DNA from: Caldora sp.
GTDB taxonomy: Bacteria > Cyanobacteriota > Cyanobacteriia > Cyanobacteriales > Coleofasciculaceae
Assembly: GCA_965222765.1 (NCBI GenBank)
Contig: CBDCVG010000043.1
Span: forward strand, 1 to 33,052
DNA length: 33,052 nt
Direction of reading: 5' to 3'
Under the pieces are notes generated by a model. That model saw nothing but the letters and a program-made list of their open reading frames with translations. It did not search any database and was not told the origin of the DNA. The position numbers and the translations under genes were made by a program. Of the stretch, positions 2 through 23,165 are shown piece after piece (the stretch's first letter is position 1; every line of letters begins with the position of its first letter).

Positions 2-1612
2 TATGGCTATCAATCCCCAGAAGAATTAATCGCCAATCTCAAAGATGTCACCCATCAACTTTACCTTAATCCTCAAGACCGTGTTGAGTTAACGGAGCTA
101 GTTGCTCAACAAGAAGTAGTCTCAGCCTTTGAATCCCAGAAGCTTCGTCAAGATGGCACAGTGATCTGGACTGCGGAAAACCTGCGGCTTGTCCGTAATC
201 AGTATGGCACACCTCTCTACTATGAAGGCACAGTGACAGATATCACTCTTGCCAAACAAGCGCAGGAGAAACTGTGTGAAAATGAAGAGCGCTTCCGCAT
301 TATGGTGGAAGAACGGACAGCTGTTCTCAAAGCATCAAATAAGCAACTGCTACAGGAAGTAGTTGAGCACAAGCGGATTGAGAATGCTCTGCGGGAGAGT
401 GAGCGCAGGTTTCGTGCTATTTTTGATGGAACATTCCACGGCATTGGCATACTCTCTCCAGAAGGTATCGTACTCGAAGTTAACCAAACAGTCTTGGACT
501 TTGGCAGCATTGAAGCTTCCGAAGTCATAGGACATCCGTTTTGGGAGGCTCAGGCTTGGGGAACTTCCCCGGAAATTAAGCAACGGCTGAAGCAGGCAGT
601 TGCGGCTGCAGCCGGGGGTGAGTTGGTTCTGTTTGAGGTAGATATTCCTAGTGCTGGTGATACTATCAGTACTATCGATTTCTCCCTGAAGCCAGTTCTC
701 GATGAGCAGGGTCAAATAGTACTACTGATATGCGAAAGTCGCGATATTACTGAGCGCAAGCAAGCTGAAGAGAAACTAAAAACTTCCCAGCAACGGCTTT
801 CCTTACTAGTACAACAAACACCCCTAGCTGTGATTGAATGGAATACTAAAGGGGAAATTGTTGATTGGAATCTTGCTGCAGAATCAATTTTTGGCTACAG
901 CAAAACTGAAGCTTTGGGTCATACAGCCAAATTGATTGTACCTGAGGAAACTATAGATGAAACTCCACTTCTCGATAAGTGTTGGTTTAACCAGGGAGTA
1001 ACTCGCGCCACTAACGAGAATCAGACCAAAAACGGTAGAGTTATTATTTGTGAGTGGTACAATTCACCCCTCATTGATGCTCAGGGAAACTTACTCGGAG
1101 CTGCTTCTATGATTCTAGACGTAACTGAACGGGCTCTGACTCAAGAGGCATTGCGGGAGAGCGAGGAGCGATTTGCTTTGGCTATTCAAGCTAATAATAG
1201 CGGACTGTTTGATCTCAACTTGAAGAGTGAAAACTACTATTACTCGCCGCAATTTCTTAGCCAAATTGACTATAGTTTAAATGAGCCAAGACCAACTTTT
1301 CAAGAATTACTTTCCCTCGTCCATCCTCATGATGTAGATTCTGTTCAAGCCACTCTAGACGAGATTTTTGCTCAACCAATCTTTCCCACCTGGAATTTAG
1401 AATTTCGCTTTTTGCTAAAAGATGGTTCTACCCGTTGGATTCTCTCACGAGGTTTGGTTCTCAGAGATGCTCAAGGCAAAGTGAGTCGCCTGATTGGAAC
1501 TCACACTGATATTACCGATGCCTATCAACAAGCAACTCAACGTAAGCAAGCAGAAGCAGCACTGCGGGAACGGGAGGAACAGTTCCTACAGCTAGCAGGA
1601 AACAATCCGTGA
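2..1612 (+). CDS. 5'-partial N-terminal portion of a multi-PAS sensor histidine kinase (at least three PAS/PAC modules). It is the same gene as 1623..3971, interrupted by a 1-nt frameshift near 1596-1606.
   Basis: Reading frame is open from the window start to TGA at 1610-1612 (ORF track lists 161..1612). Repeated PAS linker motifs are present (RKQAEEKLKTSQQRL, LRESEERFALAIQ, LREREEQFLQLAG), as are PAC-like blocks (GTVTDITL, SRDITERK, THTDITDAY). Confidence 0.8.
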   Translation, partial: YGYQSPEELIANLKDVTHQLYLNPQDRVELTELVAQQEVVSAFESQKLRQDGTVIWTAENLRLVRNQYGTPLYYEGTVTDITLAKQAQEKLCENEERFRIMVEERTAVLKASNKQLLQEVVEHKRIENALRESERRFRAIFDGTFHGIGILSPEGIVLEVNQTVLDFGSIEASEVIGHPFWEAQAWGTSPEIKQRLKQAVAAAAGGELVLFEVDIPSAGDTISTIDFSLKPVLDEQGQIVLLICESRDITERKQAEEKLKTSQQRLSLLVQQTPLAVIEWNTKGEIVDWNLAAESIFGYSKTEALGHTAKLIVPEETIDETPLLDKCWFNQGVTRATNENQTKNGRVIICEWYNSPLIDAQGNLLGAASMILDVTERALTQEALRESEERFALAIQANNSGLFDLNLKSENYYYSPQFLSQIDYSLNEPRPTFQELLSLVHPHDVDSVQATLDEIFAQPIFPTWNLEFRFLLKDGSTRWILSRGLVLRDAQGKVSRLIGTHTDITDAYQQATQRKQAEAALREREEQFLQLAGNNP

Positions 1613-1622
1613 AGTTTTCTTT

Positions 1623-3971
1623 TTGACCACTCCTGATGCTCGTCAGATGCTTTACATTAGTCCTGCTTATGAGGAAATTTGGGGTCGTACTACCCAAAGT
1701 TTGTACGAACGACCTGAATCTTGGCTAGAAGCTATTCATCCAGAAGACCGCGATCGCATCATAGCAGTCTATGCTACTAGTCTCCGAGAAAAGCGAGATT
1801 TAGACGAAGAGTATCGGATTATTCAACCGGATGGTTCAGAGCGCTGGGTAGGGGTGCGCAGTTCCTTTGTTTTCGATGAGGCAGGTGAACCGACAAGTAT
1901 TGCTGGCATTGCTGAGGATATCACTGAGCGGAAAATTTCGGAAGCTGAATTGCATCGCCAAGCACGACGTAGGCAATTGTTTGCGGAAATTACCCTTAAG
2001 ATCCGTAGGTCTTTAAGATTAGAGAAAATTCTCCAAACTACTGTCACAGAGGTGCGACGTATTCTTGATGTTGACAGGGTAGTAATCTACCAGCTATATG
2101 TTGATGGCTCAGGAACCGTGGTCAATGAGGCTGTACTTTCCAACTGGCCTGCTATCCAAGGAGAGCAGATCAACGATCCTTGTTTTGTTAAATCTTACCT
2201 GCAAATGTACCGTCAAGGAAGGATTCATGCGGTAGCTGATTTACAAAACTCTGAAGTCAAAACCTGCTATAGAGAAATGCTAGGTCAATTTGGTGTCAGA
2301 GCTAACTTAGTAGTACCCATTCTCCGCCGGGAAGAACTTTGGGGTTTACTAATTGCTCATCAGTGTAGTGGAGCAAGACAGTGGCAAGACTTTGAAGCTG
2401 AATTGTTAGATCAATTAGCGGATCAAGTGGGGATTGCTATTGCTCAGAGCCAGCTTCTGGAGAAGGAAACTAAGACAACTCAACAACTGACAGAACAGAA
2501 CCTCCACTTAGAAGAAGCCAGAAGGGAAGCTGAAGCTGCTAATCGGGCTAAGAGTGAATTTTTAGCGAACATGAGCCATGAACTCCGCACTCCCTTGAAT
2601 GGTATTTTGGGATACGCTCAAATCCTTAAACTCCAGTCTAGTTTAACTTCCAAACAACTGGAGCAAGTGAATATCATTCAACAAAGTGGCGAACACCTGT
2701 TAACCTTGCTCAATGATATCCTAGACCTCTCTAAAATTGAGGCGGGGAAAATGGAGCTCTACCTCAGCAATTTTCACTTGCCTCATTTCCTTGAAGGTAT
2801 TGCTGAAATTATTCGCCTTAGTGCTGAACAAAAAAATATTGCCTTTAATTATGAATTAGTCTCAGAGTTACCCCTTCATGTTAGAGGGGATGAAAAGCGA
2901 TTGCGACAAGTTCTGATTAATCTTTTGGGCAATGCAGTTAAATTTACTGACACCGGCGGGGTAACTTTCAAAGTTGGTTATTTAGAAAACTCTAAAATCC
3001 GCTTTCAGGTGGAAGATACTGGCATTGGCATAGCGCCAGAAAAATTAGCAGCGATCTTTTTACCTTTTCATCAAATCGGTGATTCTAAGCATCGCTTTGA
3101 AGGCACGGGACTAGGATTAGCCATCAGCCAAAAGTTAGTGAAGTTGATGGAAAGCGAATTGCAAGTAAAAAGTATCTTTGGTCAAGGGAGCATTTTTTGG
3201 ATAGATTTAGATTTACCAGAAGTTTCTGAAGGACAGGAGATGTCACCAGTTCCCAGAAAAACCATTGTCGGTTTTCGGGGTTCCAAGCGTAAACTACTCA
3301 TCGCCGACGATAAATGGGAAAATCGTTCGGTTTTAGTTAATCTGCTCCTGCCTTTGGGATTTGAAATCGCAGAAGTAAAAGACGGTAGAGATTGCCTTAA
3401 TCAGGCTATCGAATTAAAACCTGATTTAATTTTGCTGGATATGATTATGCCGGTAATTGATGGTTTAGAAACCACTCGGCAGTTGCGGCAGCTCAGAACT
3501 CTCAAAGATGTGGTAATCATTGCTACCTCAGCTAGTGTTTTTGATTACAATCAGCAGGAATATTTAGCAGCTGGTTGTGATGGCTTTATTCCTAAACCAG
3601 TACAAGCAGAAAATCTTTTTGAACTACTACAGGAGCATCTAGATCTAGAATGGATTTACGAAAATAGTAGGACACCAAGTAACCAAGAGCTAATAGAAGA
3701 AAGTACCATCTCTGGAGAAAGTTTCCAAGGAGAAATTGCTCAAACTATACAACCCAATAAAAGCACGTTGATAGTTCCACCACCTACACAAATAGCTGTT
3801 TTTTATGAACTAGCAATGATGGGAGATATTGGAGGTATCATTGAGCAAGCAAAAAAACTTCAACAACTAGATGAGCAATTTGTTCCTTTTGCTAATAAAC
3901 TGCTGCAATTAGCAAAAGGTTTTCAGGAAAAACAGATTCTGGAGTTTGTTAAACAATACACAGAGAATTAA
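1623..3971 (+). CDS. Hybrid sensor histidine kinase with PAS, GAF, HisKA, HATPase_c and REC domains plus a C-terminal tail (continuation of 2..1612)
   Basis: Starts at TTG 1623. Contains the PAS motif [22 protein letters not shown] and a GAF region ([19 protein letters not shown]...[12 protein letters not shown]). The H-box is [21 protein letters not shown]. The N, G1 and G2 boxes are [20 protein letters not shown] and [13 protein letters not shown]. The receiver domain is [13 protein letters not shown]...[13 protein letters not shown]...IPKP. Confidence 0.9.
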
Positions 3972-4030
3972 GAATTAAGAATTAAGAATTAAGAATGGGA
4001 AATGGGGAATTGGGAATTGGGAATTGGCAA
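3965..4030. repeat. STRR-type tandem heptanucleotide arrays (GAATTAA x4, then GGGAATT x3-4). The first unit supplies the kinase stop codon.
   Basis: Direct reading: gaattaagaattaagaattaagaattaagaatgggaaatggggaattgggaattgggaattgg. TAA at 3969-3971 lies inside the first unit. Confidence 0.85.
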
Positions 4031-4091
4031 GAAGAATTTTCCTCCTGCTTAAGGAAAAACAAGAAAGAGAGTAAATCTAAAATTCATCACA

Positions 4092-4571
4092 ATGCGTTTC
4101 CCCAAAGTTAGTATCATTGCCTTCATCACTTTCTTAAGTATCATTCTTAATGCTCATTGGGGATTGACCATCAGTTCCTCTAATTTACCCTGGAAAACCT
4201 CTGAGGTACAATTAGAACCCAACTACCAGATATTGAACCAAAACCTAGATGATACTCAACCAGAGAGAATAGCTCAGGAGAGTTTGCCACCAACTTTCTC
4301 TTCTATGATGAACCAGGGGCGTACCTACCGTGCCCAGAACAATTATGCTAAGGCAGTAGAGCACTTTGAGGAAGCTTTAACTTTTGCTCAAGAAAGTAAT
4401 AACTTAGAGCAGGAAGGTCGTGCTTTGAGTGAGTTGGGTAGTGCCTACCTCAGTTTGGGTAACTATGCCCAAGCACTAGCATACAATCAGGAGTGTTTAG
4501 TAGTTGCTCGGAAACTGGGTAATCGGCAGCGGGAATACTTGGCATTGAGTACTCTAGGAAGTAATTACAGT
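4092..4571 (+). pseudogene. N-terminal fragment (signal peptide + TPR repeats) of a TPR–CHAT protein gene, disrupted by IS insertion. The last 8 codons of the ORF (to 4595) are IS-derived.
   Basis: Hydrophobic N-terminus MRFPKVSIIAFITFLSIIL. TPR units match AYLSLGNYAQALAYNQECL. The repeat periodicity breaks after ...LGSNYS at 4571 and resumes at 6067 (KLGDNAKAIEFYQQAL). Confidence 0.7.
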
Positions 4572-4588
4572 ATTGTGACGTTCTCCCA

Positions 4589-4613
4589 CCGTTAACCCTT
4601 GCGGGTATAACGG
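4589..4613. repeat. Subterminal imperfect palindrome (hairpin) at the tnpB-3'-proximal end (RE side) of the IS
   Basis: ccgttaacccttgcgggtataacgg. Arms CCGTTA/TAACGG pair, and inner ACCC/GGGT pair. The same architecture is seen at the other end. Confidence 0.6.
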
Positions 4614-4619
4614 AGGCTT

Positions 4620-5879
4620 CTAAAATAGAGACAGTTGAACCCACTCTCTACTTGTAGCTTCGCGCTTCCCAGGTTGTCTATCGACTAAGCCTCCACGCGC
4701 AGGCAAGATGAGTCCCACCTCGCTTAATGCTCGGTCTAAAATATTCCGAGCTGCGTTTTCATCTCTGTCCAGGGTGATGCCACATTTGTGACATTCATGC
4801 AACCGAACAGACAAAGTTTTCGGTACTTTCACTCCACAGTTTGAGCAATTTTGTGATGTACTGTGAGGATTCACTGCAACAACTCGGACGCCGCGTTTGA
4901 CCGCCACTGCCTCCAAGATGGTGATGAATTTACCCCAAGCTGCATCCAAAATTGACTTGCTCAATCTTGTACGAGCTAGTCCTTTAATGTTCAAATCTTC
5001 CACCGCAATCAAGTCATATTGTTTAACCAGTTTGTGAGCTGTGTTGTAATGGAAGTTTTCCCTGATTCTGCCAATACGCTGATGAATTCTAGCGATGAAG
5101 TTCTTCTGTTTTTCAGCTCGTTTTGAACCAGCTTTTTTACGTGCTAATTTGCGCTGTTGACGAGCTAGATGAGACTGAGTTTTGCGATAGGTTTGCTGAA
5201 TCGGAACTGTTTCGCCATCCGAGGTTGTCAGAAATTCTTTTAGTCCGACATCAACACCAACAGCAGTCTGAACTTCATCTAATGGCATAGGTTCGGTAAC
5301 TGTTTCATCCTGCATAGAAATGCAACAGTACCAGCCATCAGCTTTGTGGACTATGGTGCAAGTCTTGAGAGTAAAACCATCCGGAATAGGACGATGCATG
5401 ATTACAGGCATCTGTCCTATCTTTGATAGTTTCAGTATCCCATTATTGATGTGCGCACCAGCTCGTTTACAGTTAACTCTAGGGTAAACAAATGAGCGAA
5501 GTGTACCTGCTTTTTTGAACCGTGGGCGTCCACCGCGTTTGCCAGACTTATCCGGAATTAGCCAGTGCCCCCAAGCTTTGTTTAATCGTTGTAGATTAAC
5601 TTGTTGAGATTCTGACCAGATGTTTTTGTAGTCTGGAAAAAGTTTCTTTGTTTGTTTAAGAGCCGACTGTTGAGTGTAGTAGTTAACTTTTTCTGATATT
5701 TCCCCAATCGGTTCAGAAATCAGACTACAACGGTCAATCCGACAACGAGTTCTTCTTAGCCAATCTAACCTCTGACCGAGTGCGTAATTCCAATGCCTCC
5801 GAAGTAGCTCTAAGGTGTAGAGCATGATTGCTTCTTGTTCGGCGCTGGGTTTAATTCGGTAGCAGTAGGTTAAAATCAT
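4620..5879 (-). CDS. tnpB: TnpB (OrfB_IS605; RuvC-like RNA-guided endonuclease of the OMEGA type)
   Basis: Translation from ATG 5879 begins MILTYCYRIKPSAEQEAIMLYTLELLRRHW. RuvC-I is VGVDVGLKEF. RuvC-II is [27 protein letters not shown]. The zinc ribbon is CSNCG...CHKCG, followed by RuvC-III DRDENAARNI. The ORF track extends 39 codons further upstream (to 5996) without similarity. Confidence 0.85.
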   Translation of the reverse strand: MILTYCYRIKPSAEQEAIMLYTLELLRRHWNYALGQRLDWLRRTRCRIDRCSLISEPIGEISEKVNYYTQQSALKQTKKLFPDYKNIWSESQQVNLQRLNKAWGHWLIPDKSGKRGGRPRFKKAGTLRSFVYPRVNCKRAGAHINNGILKLSKIGQMPVIMHRPIPDGFTLKTCTIVHKADGWYCCISMQDETVTEPMPLDEVQTAVGVDVGLKEFLTTSDGETVPIQQTYRKTQSHLARQQRKLARKKAGSKRAEKQKNFIARIHQRIGRIRENFHYNTAHKLVKQYDLIAVEDLNIKGLARTRLSKSILDAAWGKFITILEAVAVKRGVRVVAVNPHSTSQNCSNCGVKVPKTLSVRLHECHKCGITLDRDENAARNILDRALSEVGLILPARGGLVDRQPGKREATSREWVQLSLF

Positions 5880-6021
5880 AGTTATAATTTTACAACTTAC
5901 CGCCTTTGTTGCTAGTTGTGGGGGCGTAACAGTCGAGCAGCTTAAAAAGTATGTCGAGCAACAAGCAACTCCGAAATGATGATTCGCTCCGCTCAATTTC
6001 TTTGTCTGTCAGCATTCCCCG

Positions 6022-6049
6022 CCCGTTAAGCCTATGCGGCTATAACGGG
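6022..6049. repeat. Subterminal imperfect palindrome (hairpin) at the tnpB-5'-proximal end (LE side) of the IS
   Basis: cccgttaagcctatgcggctataacggg. Arms CCCGTTA/TAACGGG pair, and inner AGCC/GGCT pair. It is homologous to the hairpin at 4589-4613. Confidence 0.6.
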
Positions 6050-6066
6050 TGACCCCTGTCGAAATT

Positions 6067-7146
6067 AAGTTGGGGGATAATGCCAAAGCGATTGAGTTCT
6101 ATCAACAGGCTTTAACCCTAGCGCAGGCAATGGGTAACCCTGAGCAAGAAGTTTCCGCTCTGAATACTCTGGGAAGTATGTACTTCTCTATCTCTGCTCA
6201 AGAGTATCAGGCTCAAGTGATTGATTACCACCAGCAAGCTTTAACCATTGCCAGAGAAATTGGAAATTTGTGGGAAGAATATAGCTCTTTGAGTAGCTTA
6301 AGTGGAATTTACTCCTTCTTGGGGAACTATGCCACAGCCATTGAATATTCTCAACAAGCTTTAGCTATTGCTCCCCAACAAGGCTATCTGTTTCTGGTTC
6401 CCTTCCCAGCACTGCAAGATAAGTTAGGTAAGCACTTAATAGAAAAACATACCATCTTGACTGCACCTACAATTCAAATACTCGATTTAACCCGCCAGCA
6501 AAGGGACAAAATTGGGGATAGACGACTCGGTTCCCAGTCCTTAGTAGTAGGAAATCCTACCATGCCTAGTGTGCTCTTATCTCCAGGGGAAAAACCGCAA
6601 CAGTTATCTTCCCTCCCTAGTGCAGAACGGGAAGCAAATGCGATCGCACCTCTATTAAATACCCTACCCTTAATCGGTAATCAAGCTACTGAAACTACTA
6701 TTAAGCAGCAGTTAGGTAAAGCTAGAATAATTCACTTAGCAACCCACGGGTTATTAGATGAGGAACAGGGATTAGGAAGTGCCATTGCTTTTACCCCATC
6801 TACTCAGGATGACGGTTTACTTACTGCCGCAGAAATCTTGGATTTGCAATTAAATGCTGAATTAGTAGTCTTGAGTGCCTGTGATACTGGCAGAGGTAGA
6901 ATTACTGGAGATGGGGTAGTCGGATTATCTCGCTCTTTCATTAGCGCTGGAGTCCCCAGCATCATAGTCTCCTTGTGGCAAGTACCAGATGCTCCTACTG
7001 CTTCCTTAATGACTCAGTTTTATCAAAACTTCTCGTCCAACCCAGATAAAGCGCAAGCTCTACGCAGTGCTATGCTAGTGACGATGAAGCAACATCCTAA
7101 CCCTAAAAACTGGGCAGCTTTTACGTTAATTGGGGAAGCAAATTGA
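6067..7146 (+). pseudogene. C-terminal fragment of the TPR–CHAT protein (remaining TPR repeats + CHAT caspase-like domain), separated from its 5' half by the IS. The ORF track calls it from GTG 6049, which lies inside the IS end.
   Basis: TPR repeats match LGDNAKAIEFYQQALTLAQAMGNPEQE and LGNYATAIEYSQQALAIA. The CHAT motifs are IIHLATHGLLDE (catalytic His) and VVLSACDTGRG (catalytic Cys). Confidence 0.7.
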
Positions 7147-7190
7147 GACTAATAAGTATCTGACTATGTAGGGAACGCTGAGAACATTCC

Positions 7191-7232
7191 CCATTAACCA
7201 TTAACCATTAACCATTAACCATTAACCATTAA
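7191..7232. repeat. STRR heptamer array (CCATTAA x6). It overlaps the stop codon of the minus-strand MIF-like gene.
   Basis: Direct reading: six perfect tandem copies of ccattaa at 7191-7232, then the degenerate copy cctaacc. Confidence 0.9.
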
Positions 7233-7233
7233 C

Positions 7234-7588
7234 CTAACCAAATGTTCTGCCATCCCAACCCCAAAGATATCCTTGTGCATCAGCAAACTCAATGTAAATG
7301 CGGTTAGTCGGAACATCAATTGCCTGATTAATCTGCTCACAGAAGTCCTGACTCATCGCTTTGGTTTGCTGGGGGACGCATACTACCAACACTCTTGATT
7401 TCCACATAACAAACAGGATCACTGGTTCCGGCAAAAGTCATCGGAACATTAGATTCCAAAGCAGTCATTACATAAGATTCCGGCTTGCCTAGATGCTTGG
7501 CAAGGCTGGCAGAGAGTTGTTTGAGCAATGCTTCAGATTTATTTGTGTCCGGTGCAGTAACAGAAGTTTGAACTTTGATCAGCGGCAT
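7234..7588 (-). CDS. MIF-like tautomerase superfamily protein (macrophage migration inhibitory factor homolog). It is interrupted by a 1-nt frameshift in a G5/C5 run at 7370-7374.
   Basis: N-terminus MPLIKVQTSV (Pro-1 tautomerase start after Met). Also contains ...LGKPESYVMTALESNVPMTFAGTSDPVCYVEIKSVG. The C-terminal half is in the other frame (...RIYIEFADAQGYLWGWDGRTFG) and matches MIF family ends. ORF track pieces are 7337..7642 and 7234..7434. Confidence 0.6.
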
Positions 7589-7675
7589 ATGTTTAACCCT
7601 TGCTTCAATCCCAAACCTTAGCCTAGCGGATTCTTGAGTCAATTGCGTTAGTAAATGGGTTGCCCGAAGAAGTTG

Positions 7676-7789
7676 TAGGACTTACGCACTGTAAGGAAAT
7701 TCTGTCATCCTGAGCGGTAGCAAAGGATCTCCAAACGGCTGAGATGCTTCACTATCACCTCAGCATGACACTTGAGTGCGTAAGTCCTA
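7676..7789. repeat. MITE-like element of about 114 bp with 14-15 bp perfect terminal inverted repeats and a nested internal inverted repeat. Flanked by GTTG on both sides.
   Basis: Left TIR is aggacttacgcact (7677-7690) and right TIR is agtgcgtaagtcct (7775-7788). The internal repeat is gtcatcctgag...ctcagcatgac. A partial second copy lies at 24606-24690. Confidence 0.6.
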
Positions 7790-7796
7790 GTTGTAC

Positions 7797-7841
7797 GGGA
7801 AGCGATCGCGTTTTTGCGTTCTTTACTAGAAAAAAGACAGA
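7797..7841. repeat. 45-bp dispersed repeat containing HIP1 (copy 1). Copy 2 is at 8714-8757. The two copies flank the PEP-CTERM gene as direct repeats.
   Basis: gggaagcgatcgcgtttttgcgttctttactagaaaaaagaca compared with gggagcgatcgcatttttgcgttctctagtagaaaaaggaca (about 90% identity). Confidence 0.55.
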
Positions 7842-7947
7842 AGAGGGATAGGAAGGAAAGCCAATTGTTTATCACTCGAACAAATCCAACAACTTCAACA
7901 AAGATCGGATCACTAGGATCACCTCTAAATTAGATGCGTTTACCCTG

Positions 7948-8625
7948 CTAAATTTTATTGGATGTTAGCTTTTTGTTCAACAAAAAACCTAGTCCTAGCA
8001 TACTAAGACCTAATACAGCAGTAGGTTCAGGAACCGAGCTTGCGTCGGCAATGTTATAGGTCAAGTTATCGAAGATTTCGGGACCACCTCGAACGGTATC
8101 TAAGACAACTCGATCAAAAAGTTGTGGACCCCCTAGATTTCCCAATTCTAATTGATAGACTTGAATGTCTGAACCACCAGGGAAAGAAATAGATTGAGCT
8201 AATGCACCGTTCAAATAACCAAGAGCTGATATTGGTTCATCAGAATCTAATGACAATATAGAGAAATAGTCGATTGGCTGAGAAAAAGAAAGCTCAATAT
8301 CAAAAAAAACATCAGTTGAAGCATTACAACAGCTCTCCCCTGCATAAATGGCAATTCCTGAAGCTGGAGGAAATACATCTGCAAATAGAGTGTTAGCAAG
8401 AGGACCAGCTATTGGAGATATCCCAAGAGTGGTATCTTCAAGTAGGGAAAATTTTACTCCTTGAGACGCAAACTGATCAGTGACAATAGTTCCTGGAGCA
8501 AGGTCATTAAAATCAATTTCAACAAGAGTTGCAGCTATAGCTACCGTAGGGTTGATTTCCATTGCTAGTATCCCTAGAACACTACAAACAGTAGCTATAG
8601 CAAATTTTGGGTAGATCTTAGTCAT
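7948..8625 (-). CDS. PEP-CTERM sorting-domain secreted protein (exosortase substrate)
   Basis: N-terminal signal peptide MTKIYPKFAIATVCSVLGILA. C-terminal motif is VPEPTAVLGLSMLGLGFLLNKKL (PEP motif, then a TM helix, then a basic tail). An alternative start lies at 8643. Confidence 0.65.
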   Translation of the reverse strand: MTKIYPKFAIATVCSVLGILAMEINPTVAIAATLVEIDFNDLAPGTIVTDQFASQGVKFSLLEDTTLGISPIAGPLANTLFADVFPPASGIAIYAGESCCNASTDVFFDIELSFSQPIDYFSILSLDSDEPISALGYLNGALAQSISFPGGSDIQVYQLELGNLGGPQLFDRVVLDTVRGGPEIFDNLTYNIADASSVPEPTAVLGLSMLGLGFLLNKKLTSNKI

Positions 8626-8713
8626 ATCAAAACCCTGTGTCAATTTATGCTCACAAGTTTAGTCTCAATCTCAATCGCTATATTTAAAATTTTGTGAACT
8701 AAGAAGTTTTACC

Positions 8714-8757
8714 GGGAGCGATCGCATTTTTGCGTTCTCTAGTAGAAAAAGGACAAA
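8714..8757. repeat. 45-bp dispersed repeat containing HIP1 (copy 2)
   Basis: See copy 1 at 7797-7841. Confidence 0.55.
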
Positions 8758-8868
8758 AAAATTAGATGGTCTAACTGACTGAGAATTGGGAATTGGGAAC
8801 AAGAGATATGCTTGGGAAGTTCAAGCGATCGCCTAAAATGAGCCTCAGTTTGTCCAAGTCTATTTTGC

Positions 8869-9705: not shown

Positions 9706-9970
9706 GATGCTCCCCCAGGGTAAAACGGGTGAGCGAAAAAAAGGGTGGGGAGATAGGGAGATGGGGAGATAAGGAGATATTGTTTCTTCCATTCAATTGG
9801 TGGTGCGAAGCGCTCCTTGGGAGCTCTTCAATAATCAGAAGAAGGTTTCTATGTCAAGTGTCAGAGGGTGCTTTGTACTAATGACCAATGACAACGGTGA
9901 CATTAATTATCCTTAGAGCACGTATTAATAAATTTTTAAGTATTGTTACCGCCCCGTGATATGATCACTA

Positions 9971-10465: not shown

Positions 10466-10541
10466 GTTAAATTGATAAATAGGTTAAGTTTGAAATTAAC
10501 CGATGTTTCACTCTCGATAGGTATCTGGGGAAACCTCCGGA

Positions 10542-13043: not shown

Positions 13044-13047
<4 letters not shown>
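12493..13047 (+). CDS. atpF: F0F1 ATP synthase subunit b
   Basis: Contains [36 protein letters not shown] (TM helix), then a coiled coil. The stop overlaps the delta start (ATGA at 13044-13047). Confidence 0.92.
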
Positions 13048-15215
<2,168 letters not shown>

Positions 15216-15224
15216 ATTGGTCAT

Positions 15225-15292
15225 TTGTTGTTTGTCATTGGTCATTAAAGGACAAAGGACAAACAACAAAGGACAAACAACAAACAACAGAA
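15225..15292. repeat. Inverted STRR heptamer arrays (TTTGTTG... / ...CAAACAA) that can form a 13-bp perfect stem. They lie in the atpA–gamma intergenic region just 5' of the gamma start codon.
   Basis: tttgttgtttgtc (15225-15237) is the exact reverse complement of gacaaacaacaaa (15258-15270). Further ggacaaa/caacaaa units continue to 15292. Confidence 0.7.
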
Positions 15293-15297
15293 ATATT

Positions 15298-16248
15298 ATG
15301 CCCAATCTTAAAGCAATTCGCGATCGCATTAAGTCGGTCAAGAATACTAAAAAAATCACTGAGGCAATGCGCCTCGTTGCTGCAGCGAAAGTGCGACGTG
15401 CTCAGGAACAGGTGACAGCTACCCGTCCCTTCGCCGACCGTTTAGCACAAGTTCTCTACGGCTTACTAAACCGTCTACAGTTTGAAGAAGCCAATCTACC
15501 CCTACTCAAGCAAAGAGAGATCAAGTGTGTAGGCTTACTAGTAGTTACAGGCGATCGCGGTTTGTGTGGTGCTTATAATACTAACGTCATCCGCCGTGCG
15601 GAAAACCGTGCTAAGGAACTGAAAAAGGAAGGTCGTGACTACAAGTACATATTAGTTGGACGCAAAGCCATCCAGTACTTCGAGCGCCGTAATCAGCCCA
15701 TTGATGCCAAATACTCTGGTCTAGAGCAGATTCCCACAGCCTCAGAAGCATCTGCGATCGCAGATGAATTGCTCTCTTTGTTCCTGTCTGAATCTGTAGA
15801 CCGAATTGAATTAATCTACACCAAATTCGTCTCCTTGATTAGTTCTCGACCTGTGATACAAACCTTATTACCTCTAACAAGGCAAGGATTAGAACCCCAG
15901 GATGATGAAATCTTTAGGCTGACAACTCGTGGCGGTGAGTTTAAAGTGGAGCGGGAGAAAGTCTCAACTCAAGTCCGTAGCTTCCCCCGGGACATGATTT
16001 TTGAACAAGATCCCGTGCAGATTCTCAATGCATTGTTGCCACTATATCTTAATAACCAGTTGCTGCGAGCATTGCAAGAATCAGCATCCAGTGAATTGGC
16101 AGCCCGGATGACAGCAATGAACAGTGCCAGTGATAATGCTACAGAAATGATCGGTACATTGACTCTATCTTACAATAAAGCACGGCAGGCTGCGATTACC
16201 CAGGAAATTCTGGAAGTTGTCGGTGGAGCTCAGGCCCTAAGTGGTTAA
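15298..16248 (+). CDS. atpG: F0F1 ATP synthase subunit gamma
   Basis: N-terminus [40 protein letters not shown]-terminus ...[49 protein letters not shown]. The ORF track extends upstream to 15217 through translated STRR. Confidence 0.93.
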
Positions 16249-16330
16249 ATTCAATCTTTTTCCGTAGGGGCTCACCGACGTGCGCCCGATCCAAAGTACC
16301 CCAATCTGACATGCGCCTAAAGCGTTTAAG

Positions 16331-16373
16331 AACCCCGACTTCTTGAAGAAGTCGGGGTTCTGGGCAGTTTTTG
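16331..16373 (+). terminator. Rho-independent terminator of the atp operon
   Basis: Perfect 12-bp stem aaccccgacttc / gaagtcggggtt with a 5-nt loop, followed by ctgggcagTTTTTg. Confidence 0.8.
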
Positions 16374-16566
16374 ATCTGTTTGATATACAATTGCGATCGA
16401 ATTACTTTCTCCTAGTACAGAGGCAATGGAAGTACGATCGCTTTGCTGTTTCCGTAGGTAATCGCTTCGATAAAAAGATAATAAGACTAGCCAGGATACC
16501 GATAAATCCTTATTGTATATGAATAAAGGCGAGTGCTGAGCGAGGTACTGAAGGAAAAAGCGATCA

Positions 16567-17916
16567 ATGGGAAGAATATTTATTTCAGCAGGTCACGGTG
16601 GTATAGAAGAAGAGGGTCGTGATCCAGGAACTATTGCTGGCGGCACAACTGAAGCTCAAGAGATGATTTTGCTGCGGGATCAGATAATACCAGAGTTGCG
16701 ATCGCGCGGATTTGAGGTGCTTTCTGTACCTGATGACCTAAGTATGAGGCAAACACACCAGTGGATCAATGACCGTGCTCTCACCGATGATGTAGCCCTA
16801 GAAATCCACTCCAGTGGTTTTTTCAATCCCGACATCAGGGGAGCCATAACTTTTTACATTGCCAACAATACTGATCGTCAGAATCAGGCAGAATTGATGC
16901 TCTTGGCTCTAGTAAGACGCCTGCCTTCGTTGCCTAGCCGAGGTGCCAAACCAGATACGGAAACAGGAACTGGAAGAATCTCCTTCTGCCGTAATATTAT
17001 CATCCCCTCTTTACTACTAGAAGTTGGTTTCCTAACAAACCCAGATGATCGGTTTTTAATCCAGAATCGACGCCGAGAGATGGCTCTGGGTATTGCTGAT
17101 GGACTTGCATCTTGGAGCCGTACTGTTTCTGGTACTGAGTCTAATGATTCGGAGGTCACTTATGACACAATCAATATCAGCGTTAATGGTCAAATTTATG
17201 AAGAGCAGGGGATTCTAGTTAATAGTAATGCCTACATCCCCAATGACTTGGCAGACCGACTGGGAGTCGATTTGACTGTTGCTCCTGATATTCGCCGCAT
17301 TCAATACCGAGGAGTGGTGTATGTCAAAGCGATTGAACTGCGAGACTATAACATTTCTGTCGGCTGGGATAATCCTAGTCGTACCGTAATTGTGCGCTCA
17401 ATCTTACAAATTTGTCCTGGTTTAATTGACCGAATTATGGGACATGGCAATACTTCGGAAGTACAGCTAATGATGTTCCTCAAAAATAATAATGATAATG
17501 CTTTGAGTGAATTTCCCCAATTACCCCGGCTCTACCGAGAAGAGGGGCAGATTGAAGGAGTAAACTATGACATTGCTTTCTGTCAAGCTTGTGTAGAAAC
17601 TAGCTTCCTGCGCTTTGGAGGTGAATTGAAACCCAGTCTGAATAATTTTGGTGGTTTAGGAGCTGTTAGTGGTACTGAACCAGCGTCATTTCCTAGTGCC
17701 AGAATTGGAGTTCGCGCCCATATCCAACAATTGAAAGCCTATGCTAGTCTAGAACCTTTGGTACAAGAAGTCGTTAGTCCCCGATTTCGTTTTGTCACTC
17801 GCGGTGTTGCACCTTTAGTTGGTCAGTTAAGTGGGCGCTGGTCAACAGATTTGCAGTATGGTGATCGGATTAAAGCAGTAATCAGAAGTCTCTATGAATC
17901 GGCTAACTTACTGTAA
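16567..17916 (+). CDS. Bifunctional peptidoglycan hydrolase: N-acetylmuramoyl-L-alanine amidase (Amidase_3) plus a C-terminal glucosaminidase-like domain
   Basis: N-terminal region IFISAGHGG...GFEVLSVPDD...ALEIHSSGF...LEVGFLTNPDD (zinc amidase signature). C-terminal region ...NYDIAFCQACVETSFLRFGGELKPSLNNFGGLGA... (glucosaminidase/FlgJ-like). Confidence 0.7.
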   Translation: MGRIFISAGHGGIEEEGRDPGTIAGGTTEAQEMILLRDQIIPELRSRGFEVLSVPDDLSMRQTHQWINDRALTDDVALEIHSSGFFNPDIRGAITFYIANNTDRQNQAELMLLALVRRLPSLPSRGAKPDTETGTGRISFCRNIIIPSLLLEVGFLTNPDDRFLIQNRRREMALGIADGLASWSRTVSGTESNDSEVTYDTINISVNGQIYEEQGILVNSNAYIPNDLADRLGVDLTVAPDIRRIQYRGVVYVKAIELRDYNISVGWDNPSRTVIVRSILQICPGLIDRIMGHGNTSEVQLMMFLKNNNDNALSEFPQLPRLYREEGQIEGVNYDIAFCQACVETSFLRFGGELKPSLNNFGGLGAVSGTEPASFPSARIGVRAHIQQLKAYASLEPLVQEVVSPRFRFVTRGVAPLVGQLSGRWSTDLQYGDRIKAVIRSLYESANLL

Positions 17917-18729
17917 ATGAATCCAAAAGCTCGTAAACAATTTGCTCAACATTGGCTGCACAGTGAAGAGGCACTCAGTCAAATCGTAGCAGCTGCCAAC
18001 TTGCAACCAAGCGATCGCCTGCTGGAAATTGGTCCTGGTACCGGTATTCTAACTCAATGGTTATTACCCCAAGTCCAGTCATTAGTTGCTGTTGAAATTG
18101 ACAGGAATTTGTGTAAACTTTTAGTCAAAAAACTGGGTAATATTGACAATTTTTTACTTCTCGAAGGGGATTTCCTCTCCCTTTACTTAGACAAGCTACT
18201 AGTTTCCTTCCCTAATTTCCAAAAGCCAAATAAAGTTGTAGCTAATATTCCCTACAATATCACCGGTCCCATTCTCGAAAAATTGCTGGGAACTATTAGT
18301 CAGCCAGCTGTACCAGCATTTGATTTAATTGTGCTGCTTCTGCAACAAGAAGTAGCACAGCGCTTATGCGCCCAACCCGGTTCTAGAACCTTCGGTGCTC
18401 TATCAGTAAGGGTACAGTATCTAGCAGTATGTGAATTTATCTGTGATGTACCAGCCAAATCTTTCTCCCCTCCTCCCAAGGTCGATTCTGCTGTAGTGCG
18501 TTTGCGTCCCCAGCTAGTGCAGCAACCAGCCAATGAACCAAAGTACTTGGAAACTTTGTTGAAATTGGGCTTTGCCAGTAAACGGAAAATGTTGAGAAAT
18601 AATTTGAAATCCTTAGTCGAACGCGATCGCTTGACCCAATTGCTGGAACAATTAGAGATAAATCCCCAAGCTCGCGCAGAAGACTTGAGTGTTGCCCAAT
18701 GGGTAACTCTCAGTAATAAACTGCTATAA
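17917..18729 (+). CDS. rsmA: 16S rRNA (adenine1518/1519-N6)-dimethyltransferase RsmA/KsgA
   Basis: Contains HWLHSEEALSQIVAAANLQPSDRLLEIGPGTGILT (SAM site) and VVANIPYNITGPIL. The start ATG overlaps the amidase stop (TAAATG). Confidence 0.9.
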   Translation: MNPKARKQFAQHWLHSEEALSQIVAAANLQPSDRLLEIGPGTGILTQWLLPQVQSLVAVEIDRNLCKLLVKKLGNIDNFLLLEGDFLSLYLDKLLVSFPNFQKPNKVVANIPYNITGPILEKLLGTISQPAVPAFDLIVLLLQQEVAQRLCAQPGSRTFGALSVRVQYLAVCEFICDVPAKSFSPPPKVDSAVVRLRPQLVQQPANEPKYLETLLKLGFASKRKMLRNNLKSLVERDRLTQLLEQLEINPQARAEDLSVAQWVTLSNKLL

Positions 18730-18822
18730 ATTTCTCAACCTAACCTGGTTATTGCCTATACAGAGCAAGGAGACACTGAGACGCGGGGACAATTCTAAAT
18801 TCTAAATTCTAAATTCCAAAAA

Positions 18823-19764
18823 ATGCATTCCTACTCCCTAATTGCTCCAGCCAAAATTAATCTGTATCTAGAAATTCTAGGCGATCGCCCAGATGGTTAT
18901 CATGAGTTAGTGATGCTCCTTCAAAGCATCGAGTTAGCAGATCAAATTGATATCCGTACCCTTACCACTGACAAGATTCGGGTAAATTGTGACCATCCCC
19001 AAGTACCCCAAGACGAAAGTAATCTTGCCTACAAAGCAGCAAACTTGATGAAGGAGCAGTTTCCCGATGTTTTTGCCCAATTTGGGGGTTTGGAAATCAC
19101 CATCAACAAGCATATCCCTGTGGCAGCGGGACTAGCTGGTGGTTCTACCGATGCCGCTGCTGTGTTGGTGGGAATAGATATGATCTGGCAGTTGGGACTC
19201 ACCCAGCCAGAATTACAAGAACTAGCAAGCCAGCTGGGCTCCGATATACCTTTTTGTATTGCTGGTGGTACAGTTCTTGCTACTGGTAGAGGGGAACAGC
19301 TATCTCCCTTACCGGATCTCGATTCTCTGTATGTGGTATTAGGAAAATACGGCAGCCTTGAGGTTTCTACCCCTTGGGCTTATAAAACTTACCGCTCTGA
19401 GTTTGGGGATTCCTACGTTCGGGATACTGAAGACTTAGAAGCCCGTGCTGCTAAAGTTCATTCAGGACCAATGGTACAAGCGATCGCTAATAAGGATGGG
19501 TCACAGATTGGTCAACTACTGCACAATGATTTAGAAAAGGTAGTGTTACCAGCTCATCCTCAAGTATCCCAACTCCGAGAAGCATTCCAGAATACTGGCG
19601 CTTTAGGTGTAATGATGTCTGGCTCAGGACCAACTGTGTTTGCTTTGTGTGATTCCCAAGCTCAAGCTCAGGAGATTCAGCAACAGGTGAGAAGCACAAT
19701 TACTGACCCGGATTTAGACTTTTGGGTGACCAAGTTTTGCAGTACTGGTATTAGGATGATGTGA
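18823..19764 (+). CDS. ispE: 4-diphosphocytidyl-2-C-methyl-D-erythritol kinase (MEP pathway)
   Basis: N-terminus APAKINLYLEILGDRPDGYHEL. The GHMP kinase loop is IPVAAGLAGGSTDAAAVL. It is preceded by an AATTCTA x3 STRR (18796-18820). Confidence 0.9.
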   Translation: MHSYSLIAPAKINLYLEILGDRPDGYHELVMLLQSIELADQIDIRTLTTDKIRVNCDHPQVPQDESNLAYKAANLMKEQFPDVFAQFGGLEITINKHIPVAAGLAGGSTDAAAVLVGIDMIWQLGLTQPELQELASQLGSDIPFCIAGGTVLATGRGEQLSPLPDLDSLYVVLGKYGSLEVSTPWAYKTYRSEFGDSYVRDTEDLEARAAKVHSGPMVQAIANKDGSQIGQLLHNDLEKVVLPAHPQVSQLREAFQNTGALGVMMSGSGPTVFALCDSQAQAQEIQQQVRSTITDPDLDFWVTKFCSTGIRMM

Positions 19765-19809
19765 TACCAAACCCTCTCTATGTAATGAGTAAGTAGAGGA
19801 GAACAATAG

Positions 19810-20559
19810 ATGGATTTGCAGATTGAACTATTGAAAACTATAGCCGCTTTTGATAGAGAAAAGCTCAAAGCAAAGTTTCAATCCCAGAATGAATTTATAG
19901 TAGTAGAGAAATTTCTCCCCACCTCCATCCTGGATGAGTTTCTGCTCACCTTGCCATCACTCAAACCTACCGTCAACCGGAACTATATTCCCAAACATAA
20001 AAAAGGCGGCAGTATCAGCCGCTTCAACCTCGACAGCTTCGCTCCGATTTTTGGCAAATTCTATCAACTACCACTCCTTTTTGAGTTACTCAATGAGATT
20101 ACAGGGGAAAAGCTCCTTTCCTGTCCTCCTAATGATCCTCATACCTACGCCCTGTATTATTACACTGAGCCAGGAGACCACATCCAGTATCATTACGATA
20201 CCTCTTACTATCGAGGTAAGCGGTACACAGTACTGCTCGGTTTAGTTGACCAATCCACTAGTAAACTGGAGTATCAACTCTACCGAGATAACCCCAACCA
20301 GGAAACCCAAACCCACTCTCTAGTATTAACTCCTGGAACTCTAGTATTATTTAATGGTGACAAGCTTTACCATCGGGTAACTCCTTTAGGAGAGAACGAA
20401 GAGCGTATTGCCCTAACGATGGAGTATGTTACTGATATCCGTATGCATGGACTGAAGCGTTTCGTCTCGAATATGAAAGATGCGATCGCTTATTTCGGTT
20501 TTCGTCAAGTGTTTAGCAAAGCAAACACTCCTGAAGCTCCACCGCTTGCTGCTGATTAG
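19810..20559 (+). CDS. Hypothetical protein, possibly of the 2OG-Fe(II) oxygenase superfamily
   Basis: Candidate facial triad H-x-D (IQYHYDTSYY) plus a distal His (LYHRVTP), followed by a basic residue (EERIALTMEY). The assignment is weak and motif-based only. Confidence 0.35.
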   Translation: MDLQIELLKTIAAFDREKLKAKFQSQNEFIVVEKFLPTSILDEFLLTLPSLKPTVNRNYIPKHKKGGSISRFNLDSFAPIFGKFYQLPLLFELLNEITGEKLLSCPPNDPHTYALYYYTEPGDHIQYHYDTSYYRGKRYTVLLGLVDQSTSKLEYQLYRDNPNQETQTHSLVLTPGTLVLFNGDKLYHRVTPLGENEERIALTMEYVTDIRMHGLKRFVSNMKDAIAYFGFRQVFSKANTPEAPPLAAD

Positions 20560-20610
20560 GAATTTTTTAACTTACTAACGCTTCTGGACAGATGAGCCTA
20601 TGGTGTTTGG

Positions 20611-21145
20611 ATGAAAATCTGTACACTAAGTTCGCTGGTTGAAAGAAGAATCCCCGTCGCTTTTAGCACGGGGAATACGCAGGTAGAACGTTTAGCCCGT
20701 CCGGCGATTAATGAAGGGTTAATTCTCAACAATGACTTCTTGAATGCTCTCAATAGCGTTGGACCAGACTTTGAAGCAGCAGCTCTAGCGGGTCAGAATC
20801 CAGCGGCAAAGATTGCTGGACCGATTGTAACTCAAGCCAAGCAAACTTTACTAGCTGTGGGTAATAGTGAAGAACGGGCTAATTCTCTAATAGGGGCGTT
20901 TCTACCAGATGTTATGCGCATTGATACCAGCCGGTGCTAGTGGCTATGCGAAAGATCTCAATGCCAAGGGTAGTCCGGTGCGAGGGCGAATGCTGGAAGA
21001 CGATGTAATTGATATTACCCTAAGCGTACTGACAGACGGTGCGATCGCAACTGACAATGTTTCCTATGCAGGTACTCCCGGTAACCCGTCTCAGGGCCAC
21101 GATCCTCTAGAACCCTCATTCCCTTACCTAGCATTGCCTAATTAA
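20611..21145 (+). pseudogene. Short, frameshifted relic resembling only the C-terminal part of DUF4331-family secreted proteins
   Basis: Motifs LARPAINEGLI, LPDVMRIDTS and, in the +1 frame, GRMLEDDVIDITLSVLTDGAIATDNVS...FPYLA. ORF track pieces 20611..20940 and 20909..21145 overlap. The family is normally about 450 aa, whereas about 175 aa are present here. Confidence 0.4.
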
Positions 21146-21609
21146 AAAGAAAGGCAGAAGGCAGAGGGCAGGAGGCAGAAGGAACCGGGTGAAGTGAAAA
21201 AAGTTGTGGGAGAGCTTTTTTGAGTAATGAGCGCCTAACGGCGAATGAAGAATGAAGAATTAAGAATTAAGAATTCATTGATGGAATCGCCGAAAAAGAA
21301 GTCAGAAACTACTCATATCAAGGGATTCAGCCCCAAATATAGGATTTTAGTTTCTCGAGAGTAATGAGTAATGAGTGAAGAAACTTTTCTCAAATCCTCT
21401 TCCCTTCTAACTCGTGCCCTGGAGCCTCGGAGCCTTGTTTATTCAGAACCACCGTAAAATTTAACCTCACCCGAAGGAACCCCTACTCTCTGCTCCCTCA
21501 CGGGGTGACAAGCAGCTCTGCTCTCCATCTCTCCTATCTCCCGATCTTCCCCATCTTCCCTATCTCCCCTATCTCCCCAGCTCCCCAGTGGCGCGGCACG
21601 ACTAAAAAG

Positions 21610-21687
21610 GTAGGTTGGGTGTAACGAAGTGAAACCCAACAGAATATACGCCGGTGTTGGGTTACGCTATCGCTCCACCCAACCTAC
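21610..21687. repeat. Small MITE-like element (78 bp) with 12-bp perfect TIRs and an internal hairpin. A truncated copy is at 24716-24775.
   Basis: Left TIR is gtaggttgggtg (21610-21621) and right TIR is cacccaacctac (21676-21687). The internal palindrome is aacccaacag...ggtgttgggtt. The core gaagtgaaacccaacag...gttgggttacgctatcgctc recurs in inverted orientation at 24716-24775. Confidence 0.6.
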
Positions 21688-21811
21688 TTATTCTCAAAAG
21701 ACGCGGAGAATTGAAATCCCACTTCATGTTTCGTTCACCTCCATACCCCCTATCTCCCGATCTTCCCCATCTCCCCATCTCCTCCAGCTTCCCAGCTCCC
21801 CTTTCAGAACA

Positions 21812-23165
21812 ATGCTAATAAATTTTGCTCTCAAACATCGGTTCTTGCAACAGCAACAACAACTTATTCTCGGTGGATGTCTTCTAGTAGGTTTAGCAAT
21901 CACCACTCAGCTAGTACCAAAGCTAATTGCTTCATCTTCTCCCTACCGCTATCCTTTTGCATCACCCACTGATGTTAATATCACTCGTCAGCTAGAACAA
22001 GAAGTGACGTTTTATCAAAGGCGCATTCGTCAGAGTCCTCAGGATGGCCTTAATCAAGCACTCTTAGCAACCGTCTATCTCAAGCTAGCAAGAGCCACAG
22101 GTGATTCCAACTGGTATTTGTTGGCAGAACAAGCTGCTCAACAATCTTTCAATAATCTGCCTTTTAACAATACGGGAGCGCTACTCGCTCAAGCAAAAGT
22201 TGCAGAAGCTAGGCATGATTTTGACGGAGCGATCGAACTTGTTCAAAAAGTTTTGAGTACCCATCCTCAGCACGAAGATGCCTTATCTATTCTAGTAAGT
22301 GCTCATCTGGGAAAGGGACAAATTTCTCAAGCCGAGGTTGCGGCTCAACAATTAGTTGAGCAAGTCCCCGACATTGGGTGCTTATACTCTCAGAGCTTTG
22401 GTTAATATCGCTCAAGGTCAAGATGAAGCTGCAATTGAAGACTTTCAACAAGCCTTGGCGTTAGAAGAACCCGAAGAAGTGGGTAGCTCTGTTTGGACTA
22501 GAACCTTGCTGGCTCGGTTTTATGCTAGCCGAGGTGAGTTGAACGAAGCCAAACAGCTTTATCAAGAAGCATTGCGAATTTTACCGCGATCGCCTTTAGG
22601 ACTGACTCAATTAGCTCAACTAGAAACTCGGCTAGGCAACTACCGTAAGGCAGAAAAGCTCTATTCCCAAGTTTTTGTATCCCGCGATTATCCCAATGTC
22701 TGGGATCATGTGGCGCTGGAAGGTATGGCAGAAGTAGAAGTTTTACGGGGTAATCGAGTAGAAGCGGAAGCTCTCTGGGAGAAGGCAGAGGTTCTCTTTC
22801 GCCAGCATCAAGATTTGAGTACTTTTGGCCACCGCCGAGAGTTAGCGCGATTGTTGCTCTCACGAGGACGGGAAAAGGATTTGCCAGAAGCTCTAACCCT
22901 GATAGAAGCTGACTTGCAAATGCGTCGTGATGTAGAAACCCTGGATACCTATGCCTGGGTACTAACTCGGTTGAACCGTTGGCAAGATGCTCAGGCTGTC
23001 TTGAAAAAAGCGATCGCAACTGGTCAACGTAGTGCAGTTATCTTCTACAGAGCAGGACTGGTTGAACAGCACTTAGGTAATTCTAACCAGGCAGAGACTT
23101 ACTTTCAACAGTCTAAGGCAACTGACCCGATGTTTGACTTTCAAGAAACAAGGCAGTCTCGATGA
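21812..23165 (+). CDS. TPR-repeat protein with an N-terminal TM/signal segment, interrupted by a +1 frameshift (extra G in the GGG run at 22376-22378)
   Basis: Starts MLINFALKHRFLQQQQQLILGGCLLVGLAI. Frame 2 ends ...LVEQVPDIGCLYSQSFG*, while frame 0 continues ...GAYTLRALVNIAQGQDEAAIEDFQQALAL with consistent TPR periodicity. The upstream part of ORF 21629.. is a translated heptamer repeat. Confidence 0.7.

Follow-up and report, generated by a model that had tools for sequence, protein, structure and literature searches.

The stretch of DNA analysed here (the window; 33,052 nt, contig CBDCVG010000043.1 from Caldora sp.) has a G+C content of about 43% and carries the cyanobacterial atp operon, atpI-B-E-G-F-H-A-C, with other genes on either side. 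Among these are genes for a PAS/GAF hybrid histidine kinase, a TPR-CHAT protein, a MIF-family protein and a cell-wall amidase, rsmA and ispE, and genes for a 2OG oxygenase, a DUF4331 remnant, a TPR protein, a HupE/UreJ-family protein, AbgT and an FMN-dependent dehydrogenase. Five of the about 31 genes in the window, atpA among them, are each broken by a single extra base. Such a proportion is far above expectation for an accurate assembly of a free-living cyanobacterium, and the origin of these five frameshifts is the subject of this analysis.

Used as a protein query, the repaired AtpA led to Symploca sp. SIO2C1, with which it shares 99% amino-acid identity. Contig JAAHGL010000061.1 of this metagenome-assembled genome (MAG), taken as two stretches (L081 and L086), served as the main comparison sequence. 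In a blastn alignment it is syntenic with the window from position 967 to 32100. The DNA identity is about 96% (mostly 94-97%, and 92-93% over positions 21810-27523). The sequence comparison marks the window organism as a Symploca (a marine cyanobacterium) close to Symploca sp. SIO2C1. All five genes have uninterrupted counterparts there, encoding a kinase of 1711 aa, a MIF protein of 117 aa, an AtpA of 505 aa, a DUF4331 protein of 417 aa and a TPR protein of 461 aa.

An earlier note on this DNA, made from the sequence alone, had claimed that five otherwise intact genes including atpA each contain a +1 frameshift, that all five are insertions which can be mended by dropping one base, and that both halves of each gene keep their family similarity over the break. 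The comparison bears out these three claims. In the list of open reading frames (ORFs) of the window, each break appears as two ORFs on the same strand in different frames (Table 1), and in a three-frame translation the expected protein resumes in the next frame. Pfam profile coordinates run continuously over the breaks of atpA (ATP-synt_ab, 1-105 in one ORF and 106-213 in the next), the MIF-family gene (1-76 and 66-114) and the DUF4331 remnant (252-343 and 356-421), and the kinase has PAS domains on either side of its break. According to the blastn alignments with SIO2C1, every lesion consists of exactly one inserted nucleotide, which is a copy of the adjacent base. None of the five extra bases is present in the SIO2C1 contig; a comparison with orthologues in close relatives was one of the checks that the note had proposed.

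To repair the genes, one base was deleted at each site, and the products were compared with the SIO2C1 orthologues. All five are then colinear with their orthologue, contain no internal stop and reach 95-99% protein identity. The repaired kinase is identical to its L081 orthologue in 965 of 998 residues (no stops), the repaired MIF protein to the 117-aa L081 protein in 115 of 118 aligned positions, the DUF4331 remnant in 154 of 156 residues and the TPR protein in 428 of 451 (again without stops). The MIF protein is also contiguous at the junction in two further loci (L082 and L083), and homologues of the TPR protein across the cyanobacteria are single proteins, mostly of about 430-510 aa.

The positions of the extra bases could be refined with these alignments. 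The C4 run in atpA proposed by the note was confirmed (it is a C3 run in the relative), and so was the break in the DUF4331 remnant, which had been put at about 20928-20933 and can now be pinned to a CC. In the kinase, the break does lie within the proposed interval 1596-1606, where it narrows down to one additional A. For the MIF-family gene, the G5 run was named correctly (it reads as C5 on the coding strand), while its coordinates, given as 7370-7374, were off by one. The TPR gene is broken as claimed, but not in the GGG run at 22376-22378: since the relative reads EQVPTLGAY, which is restored by the removal of a C only, the true site is the C4 run 7-10 nt upstream. No further ORF pair of the same kind was found in the ORF list of the window. 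Two other candidates were rejected. A sixth frameshift at the start of the window is not required, as the kinase frame is open from base 2 up to 1612, and the lesion in the HupE-family gene is not due to an indel but to a substitution, which gives an in-frame TGA.

The interrupted forms appear nowhere else. In the protein collection, a single contig (228,187 bp, from NCBI/ENA and without deposited protein annotation) accounts for the gene products of the window, all of the broken fragments among them. Junction peptides of 83-84 aa taken from the repaired window match the SIO2C1 proteins contiguously with 95-100% identity. For atpA, the junction is ungapped in 90 of 90 loci gathered from genomes and metagenomes, and the repaired 83-aa peptide is 100% identical to that of six of them. 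A scan of the genome collection with the repaired AtpA yielded 80 loci (the best 90% identical), all of which match the query from residue 1 or 2 (residue 5 in one locus) through residues 500-505, and almost all of the cyanobacterial AtpA protein matches listed have a length of 505-506 aa. When metagenomes were scanned for the atpA junction with C3 and C4 both allowed, five contigs were obtained. All five have C3, but at only about 71-78% identity they are distant and of little informative value for this species. The broken state is thus derived and unique to one contig. An intact copy from the same strain was not among the records, as none of the exact sequences of repaired AtpA, MIF and TPR protein (0 of 3) is present in the protein collection.

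This distribution bears directly on the idea that the extra bases really exist in the DNA and that expression gets past them, be it by programmed +1 frameshifting, by quadruplet reading through a tRNA-Pro or by transcriptional slippage. Inspection of the sites gives it some substance in two places: in the TPR gene, where the frame reads GTC CCC GAC, the sequence of the orthologue would result exactly if tRNA-Pro slipped from CCC to CCG, and in the kinase a TGA stop follows two codons past the shift. However, none of the five sites is conserved, a relative with about 96% identity lacks every one of the extra bases, and no shift is present in any of the 90 atpA loci. The five contexts have no motif in common, and the one in atpA (ACC CCU AGU) permits no re-pairing of the tRNA in the +1 frame. 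The runs are also only 2-5 nt long. Transcriptional slippage is known from runs of A or T of roughly 8 or more; the runs at hand are AA, G5, C4, CC and C4. Finally, it is implausible that an abundant essential subunit would be made through inefficient frameshifting. We consider bypass during expression very improbable, and the low rank that the earlier note gave to slippage and programmed frameshifting agrees with the lack of conservation and the unsuitable contexts.

The bacterial prfB gene, which encodes release factor 2 (RF2), is a known system close to such a bypass, as it shares with the window one extra base and a zero-frame stop soon after. In prfB, however, the shift site, the in-frame UGA and the upstream Shine-Dalgarno-like stimulator are conserved across bacteria. 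The sites in the window are not conserved even at 96% identity; the orthologues are uninterrupted at all five. Instead of the combination of a slippery P-site codon, a slow A-site codon and a stimulator, there is one site, that in the TPR gene (CCC G), where re-pairing of tRNA-Pro would be possible. The poly-A slippage of Buchnera and Blochmannia also resembles the case at hand in that frameshifts occur at mononucleotide runs in well-conserved genes. There, the tracts are long (about 9 nt or more of A or T) and lie in AT-rich decaying genomes, whereas the runs in the window measure 2-5 nt, are mostly G/C and belong to a genome with about 43% G+C from a lineage with free-living relatives. A more general version of the recoding idea assumes that the bases are real and that +1 recoding at short C/G runs is frequent in this organism, through quadruplet decoding by tRNA-Pro or relaxed frame maintenance, so that full-length AtpA is made. 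If it were true, it would mean that a free-living cyanobacterium tolerates hundreds of frameshifted genes. It would then be remarkable that a subunit as essential as that of the ATP synthase is expressed by way of a frameshift, but the evidence is strongly against it and we regard this version as scarcely credible.

If the extra bases are real but not bypassed, the five genes would be young pseudogenes that arose through recent +1 slippage mutations in a genome that is losing genes, for example under relaxed selection or in association with a host. The form of the lesions agrees with this, as the inserted base duplicates its neighbour at each site, just as replication slippage would give. Lesions that look genuine are also found elsewhere in the window, namely a TnpB insertion, a 2.6-kb deletion that truncates the DUF4331 gene, and the TGA codon in the HupE-family gene. 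Inactivated genes should, however, have begun to drift. We therefore determined the ratio of non-synonymous to synonymous substitution rates (dN/dS) between the repaired window genes and their SIO2C1 orthologues, treating the parts upstream and downstream of the break separately; dS was about 0.14 (0.12-0.22). The ratios are low on both sides (Table 1), and neither dN/dS nor stops after repair indicate relaxed selection 3' of the breaks in any of the five genes. In atpA, the 250 codons downstream of the break contain only three non-synonymous differences, where several tens would be expected had they drifted neutrally on the window's lineage ever since the two diverged. The downstream parts have therefore been subject to purifying selection during practically all of this time, and there is no evolutionary trace of gene inactivation. 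Because dN/dS is low on both sides, all five lesions, if real, must be very recent.

Several further observations speak against young pseudogenes. A cyanobacterium cannot lose atpA, yet atpA is among the broken genes; of the operon atpI-B-E-G-F-H-A-C, a core function that a decaying genome would spare, it is the member that is hit. The density of about one frameshift per 5-7 kb would imply in the order of a thousand broken genes genome-wide. Moreover, a near-identical contig, described below, has different breaks and does not share the five of the window. In our view, real pseudogenes are an improbable explanation. The earlier note had likewise ranked a decaying genome low, which fits with the absence of decay downstream of the breaks and with the fact that atpA was not spared.

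The spectrum of indels between the window and SIO2C1 provides another argument. The aligned coding sequence amounts to 23,283 nt with 4.3% mismatches. Indels in the middle of genes whose length is not a multiple of three are restricted to the five 1-nt insertions, and 1-nt deletions do not occur; the remaining coding indels are two repeat changes, one of them in frame and the other over the kinase stop codon, an indel directly 5' of the atpA start codon, and one extra A at the stop-start overlap of the amidase gene and rsmA (Table 1). The aligned non-coding DNA (2,328 nt, 6.1% mismatches) contains 19 indel events. Here, 1-nt events lean to deletion (three deletions against one insertion), and many of the others are changes in the copy number of heptamer repeats. 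Under the pseudogene explanation, it is difficult to see why the coding sequence has no 1-nt deletions. The natural indels thus show the selective filter to be expected and a lean to deletion, both of which are missing from the five +1 events. In coding DNA, the density of these events (5 per 23.3 kb, or 2.1 per 10 kb) is compatible with the non-coding one (1 insertion per 2.3 kb) and is what a uniform error process would give. No common sequence or methylation motif (GATC, CGATCG, GGCC, CCWGG) was seen at the five sites by inspection, and a resemblance to GGG(G)WC on one strand at three of the sites was judged to be due to chance. The extra A at the amidase/rsmA overlap, an extension to TAAATG, is harmless by its position and could be a sixth insertion of the same kind.

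The near-identical contig mentioned above is a second unannotated NCBI/ENA contig of 17,648 bp, which came to light because it has members in the 90%-identity clusters of the window proteins. Its PanD, methyltransferase and TauD-family proteins are identical to those of the window and others differ by a few residues, so it comes from a near-identical Symploca. Three of its proteins are aberrant (P0155, P0169 and P0176): AbgT has 422 aa instead of 508, the FMN dehydrogenase is missing its first 85 residues (282 aa instead of 367), and HupE is represented by an N-terminal fragment of 153 aa. The aberrant stretches GNTNSRG, NMIKILVWER (followed by a stop) and LQTPTLLN are exact out-of-frame translations of window DNA, except that the last residue of LQTPTLLN differs by a substitution. 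The AbgT and HupE breaks can be reconstructed as A5 to A4, as T6 to T5 and as two changes 30 nt apart, first GG to GGG and then GG to G, and at all of these places the window and SIO2C1 are intact. As this contig does not span the five sites of the window, it does not arbitrate them directly. However, the breaks differ between near-identical contigs. They are thus contig-specific rather than inherited, a pattern characteristic of consensus noise, and a whole set of indel-ridden assemblies is suggested by these findings.

A related possibility is that the indels arose where co-assembled haplotypes were merged into a mixed-strain consensus, which would be an artefact of assembly and not of base-calling. 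The occurrence of a second near-identical Symploca contig in the same type of source points in this direction, as related strains may have been sampled together. But two intact haplotypes do not normally yield single-base extensions of runs, and the alignments show no local mosaic of substitutions around the five sites. Strain merging is in any case a sub-case of the technical explanation and not a biological alternative, and we think it highly unlikely.

Taken together, we infer, with a probability of about 90%, that consensus error in the assembly of the contig, and not biology, accounts for the five frameshifts. The organism most likely has intact genes for atpA, the histidine kinase, the MIF-like protein and the TPR protein, as well as an unshifted DUF4331 remnant. 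At each site, one base of a short run would have been called twice, either because the data were of a type prone to run-length errors (most plausibly long reads) or because an inadequately polished consensus retained the over-called base. The insertion-type sequencing or assembly error that the earlier note had preferred fits every test that was run. A single base lengthens a run at all five sites (A to AA, G4 to G5, C3 to C4, C to CC and C3 to C4). The extra bases are absent from independent close sequences, both from SIO2C1 at about 96% identity and from all 90 atpA loci. A filter by selection is not seen, as an essential gene has been struck and the dN/dS values downstream (0.04-0.16) are like those upstream. 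The F-type ATP synthase of a cyanobacterium cannot do without its F1 alpha subunit. With five or six events in 33 kb, the error rate would be about 15-18 indels per 100 kb, or roughly Q38.

Indels in the consensus of long-read assemblies are a documented cause of fragmented and frameshifted gene calls (PMC9262707). The window resembles assemblies with run-length errors from long-read or flow-based data, a problem that is measured by IDEEL (PMC9262707), in its single-base changes of run length, in genes that are split into two adjacent ORFs which jointly match one full-length homologue, in that essential and non-essential genes are affected alike, and in that the assemblies of near-identical organisms break at different places. 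It differs from textbook nanopore errors in that there are insertions only, in true runs of 1-4 nt, and that four of the five involve C or G. An insertion-only pattern in short C/G runs would fit insertion-prone chemistries or a polishing artefact.

Some points weigh against consensus error. The error is deduced from assembled sequences. The affected runs are short, with true lengths of 1, 1, 3, 3 and 4, while classic nanopore errors concentrate in longer homopolymers and lean to deletion. Both the insertion-only pattern and the notion of a systematic bias rest on five events, and the 17.6-kb contig is tied to the assembly of the window by its source type only (NCBI and ENA, unannotated). Furthermore, the genuine-looking lesions in the window (TnpB insertion, 2.6-kb deletion, TGA in HupE) mean that there is some real gene loss, and the same could hold for any single frameshift among the four in non-essential genes.

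These other lesions deserve a description of their own (coordinates in Table 1). A gene for an RNA-guided endonuclease TnpB of the IS200/IS605 type (NF040570, 279 bits) lies inside the TPR-CHAT gene, where it separates a 167-aa N-terminal TPR part from a 365-aa part with TPR and CHAT. The orthologue is one protein of 1047 aa in the L082 and L083 loci, and SIO2C1 (L081) has only a TPR protein of 297 aa. In the HupE/UreJ-family gene, the in-frame TGA takes the place of CAA (Gln) in SIO2C1; the 17.6-kb contig reads Arg at this position, presumably CGA, which is one change away from each. The gene is thereby divided into an N-terminal piece of 126 aa and a HupE_UreJ_2 piece of 200 aa, which restarts at a GTG. 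An insertion-error model does not explain such a substitution; the TGA could be a genuine nonsense mutation or an erroneous base. Upstream of the DUF4331 remnant, the window lacks about 2.6 kb that is present in SIO2C1, comprising a cupin_7 gene, the gene for an ECF sigma-70 factor and the initial ~260 codons of the DUF4331 gene, with about 100 bp of unrelated sequence at the junction. The term relic, which the earlier note had used for this gene, is thus justified. Since the 156 codons that were retained have a dN/dS of about 0.05, the deletion must be recent or is itself an assembly artefact.

The comparison with SIO2C1 brought out several further features. Tandem heptamers (such as CCATTAA, CAACAAA, AGAATTA, CAAATAA and ACAAATG) fill most of the intergenic spacers and also lie at the ends of some genes. 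Between the window and SIO2C1 they vary in copy number, and they are the source of most natural indels between the two; they resemble the short tandemly repeated heptamers (STRR) of filamentous cyanobacteria. The window lacks a pair of genes for a PIN-domain toxin and a MazE/PrlF-type antitoxin, which SIO2C1 has between ispE and the 2OG-Fe(II) oxygenase gene. Relative to SIO2C1, about 0.9 kb of extra DNA separates the MIF gene from its neighbour; it contains an ORF of 231 aa, for which a weak C-terminal PEP-CTERM signal was obtained (TIGR02595, E = 8e-4). A second TauD/GBBH-family gene begins near 32130, and its frame is open past the end of the window; it is about 69% identical at the DNA level to the copy next to it and has the appearance of a tandem paralogue. 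Several intergenic places of SIO2C1 are matched in both orientations by short dispersed repeats of the window, of which one is palindromic; these resemble miniature repeat elements.

Table 1. Single-base insertions, other indels and further features of the window. L081 and L086 are the two stretches of the SIO2C1 contig; dN/dS is given for the parts upstream and downstream of each break.
Feature	Position	Strand	Details	ORF pair	dN/dS upstream	dN/dS downstream
Hybrid PAS/GAF histidine kinase, extra A	1604-1605	+	ACATCC to ACAATCC; 1-nt insertion at 1605 vs L081	161-1612 / 1623-3971	0.12	0.10
MIF-family gene (117 codons, 7234-7588)	7371-7375	-	G4 to G5; insertion at 7375 vs L081	7337-7642 / 7234-7434 (minus strand)	0.10	0.04
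atpA (13697-15215)	14466-14469	+	C3 to C4, break after ...MYKGKAT; insertion at 14466 vs L081	13634-14482 / 14424-15215	0.012	0.04
DUF4331 C-terminal remnant (20611-21145)	20931-20932	+	C to CC, CAGCGG to CAGCCGG; insertion at 20931 vs L081 and L086	20611-20940 / 20909-21145	0.04	0.06
Gene for TPR protein of ~450 aa (21812-23165)	22366-22369	+	C3 to C4; insertion at 22369 vs L086	21629-22405 / 22356-23165	0.14	0.16
In-frame repeat change	9575		12+12 nt; coding indel			
Repeat change over kinase stop codon	3964		7 nt; coding indel			
Indel directly 5' of atpA start codon			4 nt; counted with coding indels			
Extra A at amidase/rsmA stop-start overlap	17915 (17913-17917)		TAATG to TAAATG (A2 to A3)			
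Heptamer repeats	3964-4027, 7191-7234, 13650-13694, 15247-15289, 18791-18820, 21151-21275, 23274-23326, 26323-26436					
TnpB gene	4620-5996	-	inside TPR-CHAT gene			
TPR-CHAT gene, parts	4092-4595 and 6049-7146		167 aa and 365 aa			
HupE/UreJ-family gene	23319-24419		366 codons; TGA at 23697-23699, GTG at 23817			
2.6-kb deletion	20575-20675					
Toxin-antitoxin pair of SIO2C1, absent	19757-19780		L081 16382-17000			
Extra DNA beside MIF gene	7643-8762		about 0.9 kb			
ORF in extra DNA	7948-8643	-	231 aa			
TauD/GBBH-family gene, first copy	30778-32097					
TauD/GBBH-family gene, second copy	32122-33052		open past window end			
Dispersed repeats	9727-9779, 21603-21690, 24719-24768		matches for example at L086 2020-2065, 6649-6736, 12866-12917			

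If the frameshifts are consensus errors, the contig, and probably the whole assembly, would contain about 15 frame-breaking indels per 100 kb. Used unpolished or without a frameshift-aware annotation, it would lead to wrong gene calls, wrong pseudogene counts and mistaken inferences of genome decay or recoding. The approach taken here offers a recipe for telling error from biology that does not depend on reads: indels are polarised against a relative with ~95% average nucleotide identity, dN/dS is compared on either side of the break, coding and non-coding indel classes are set against each other, and sister assemblies are searched for breaks at other places.

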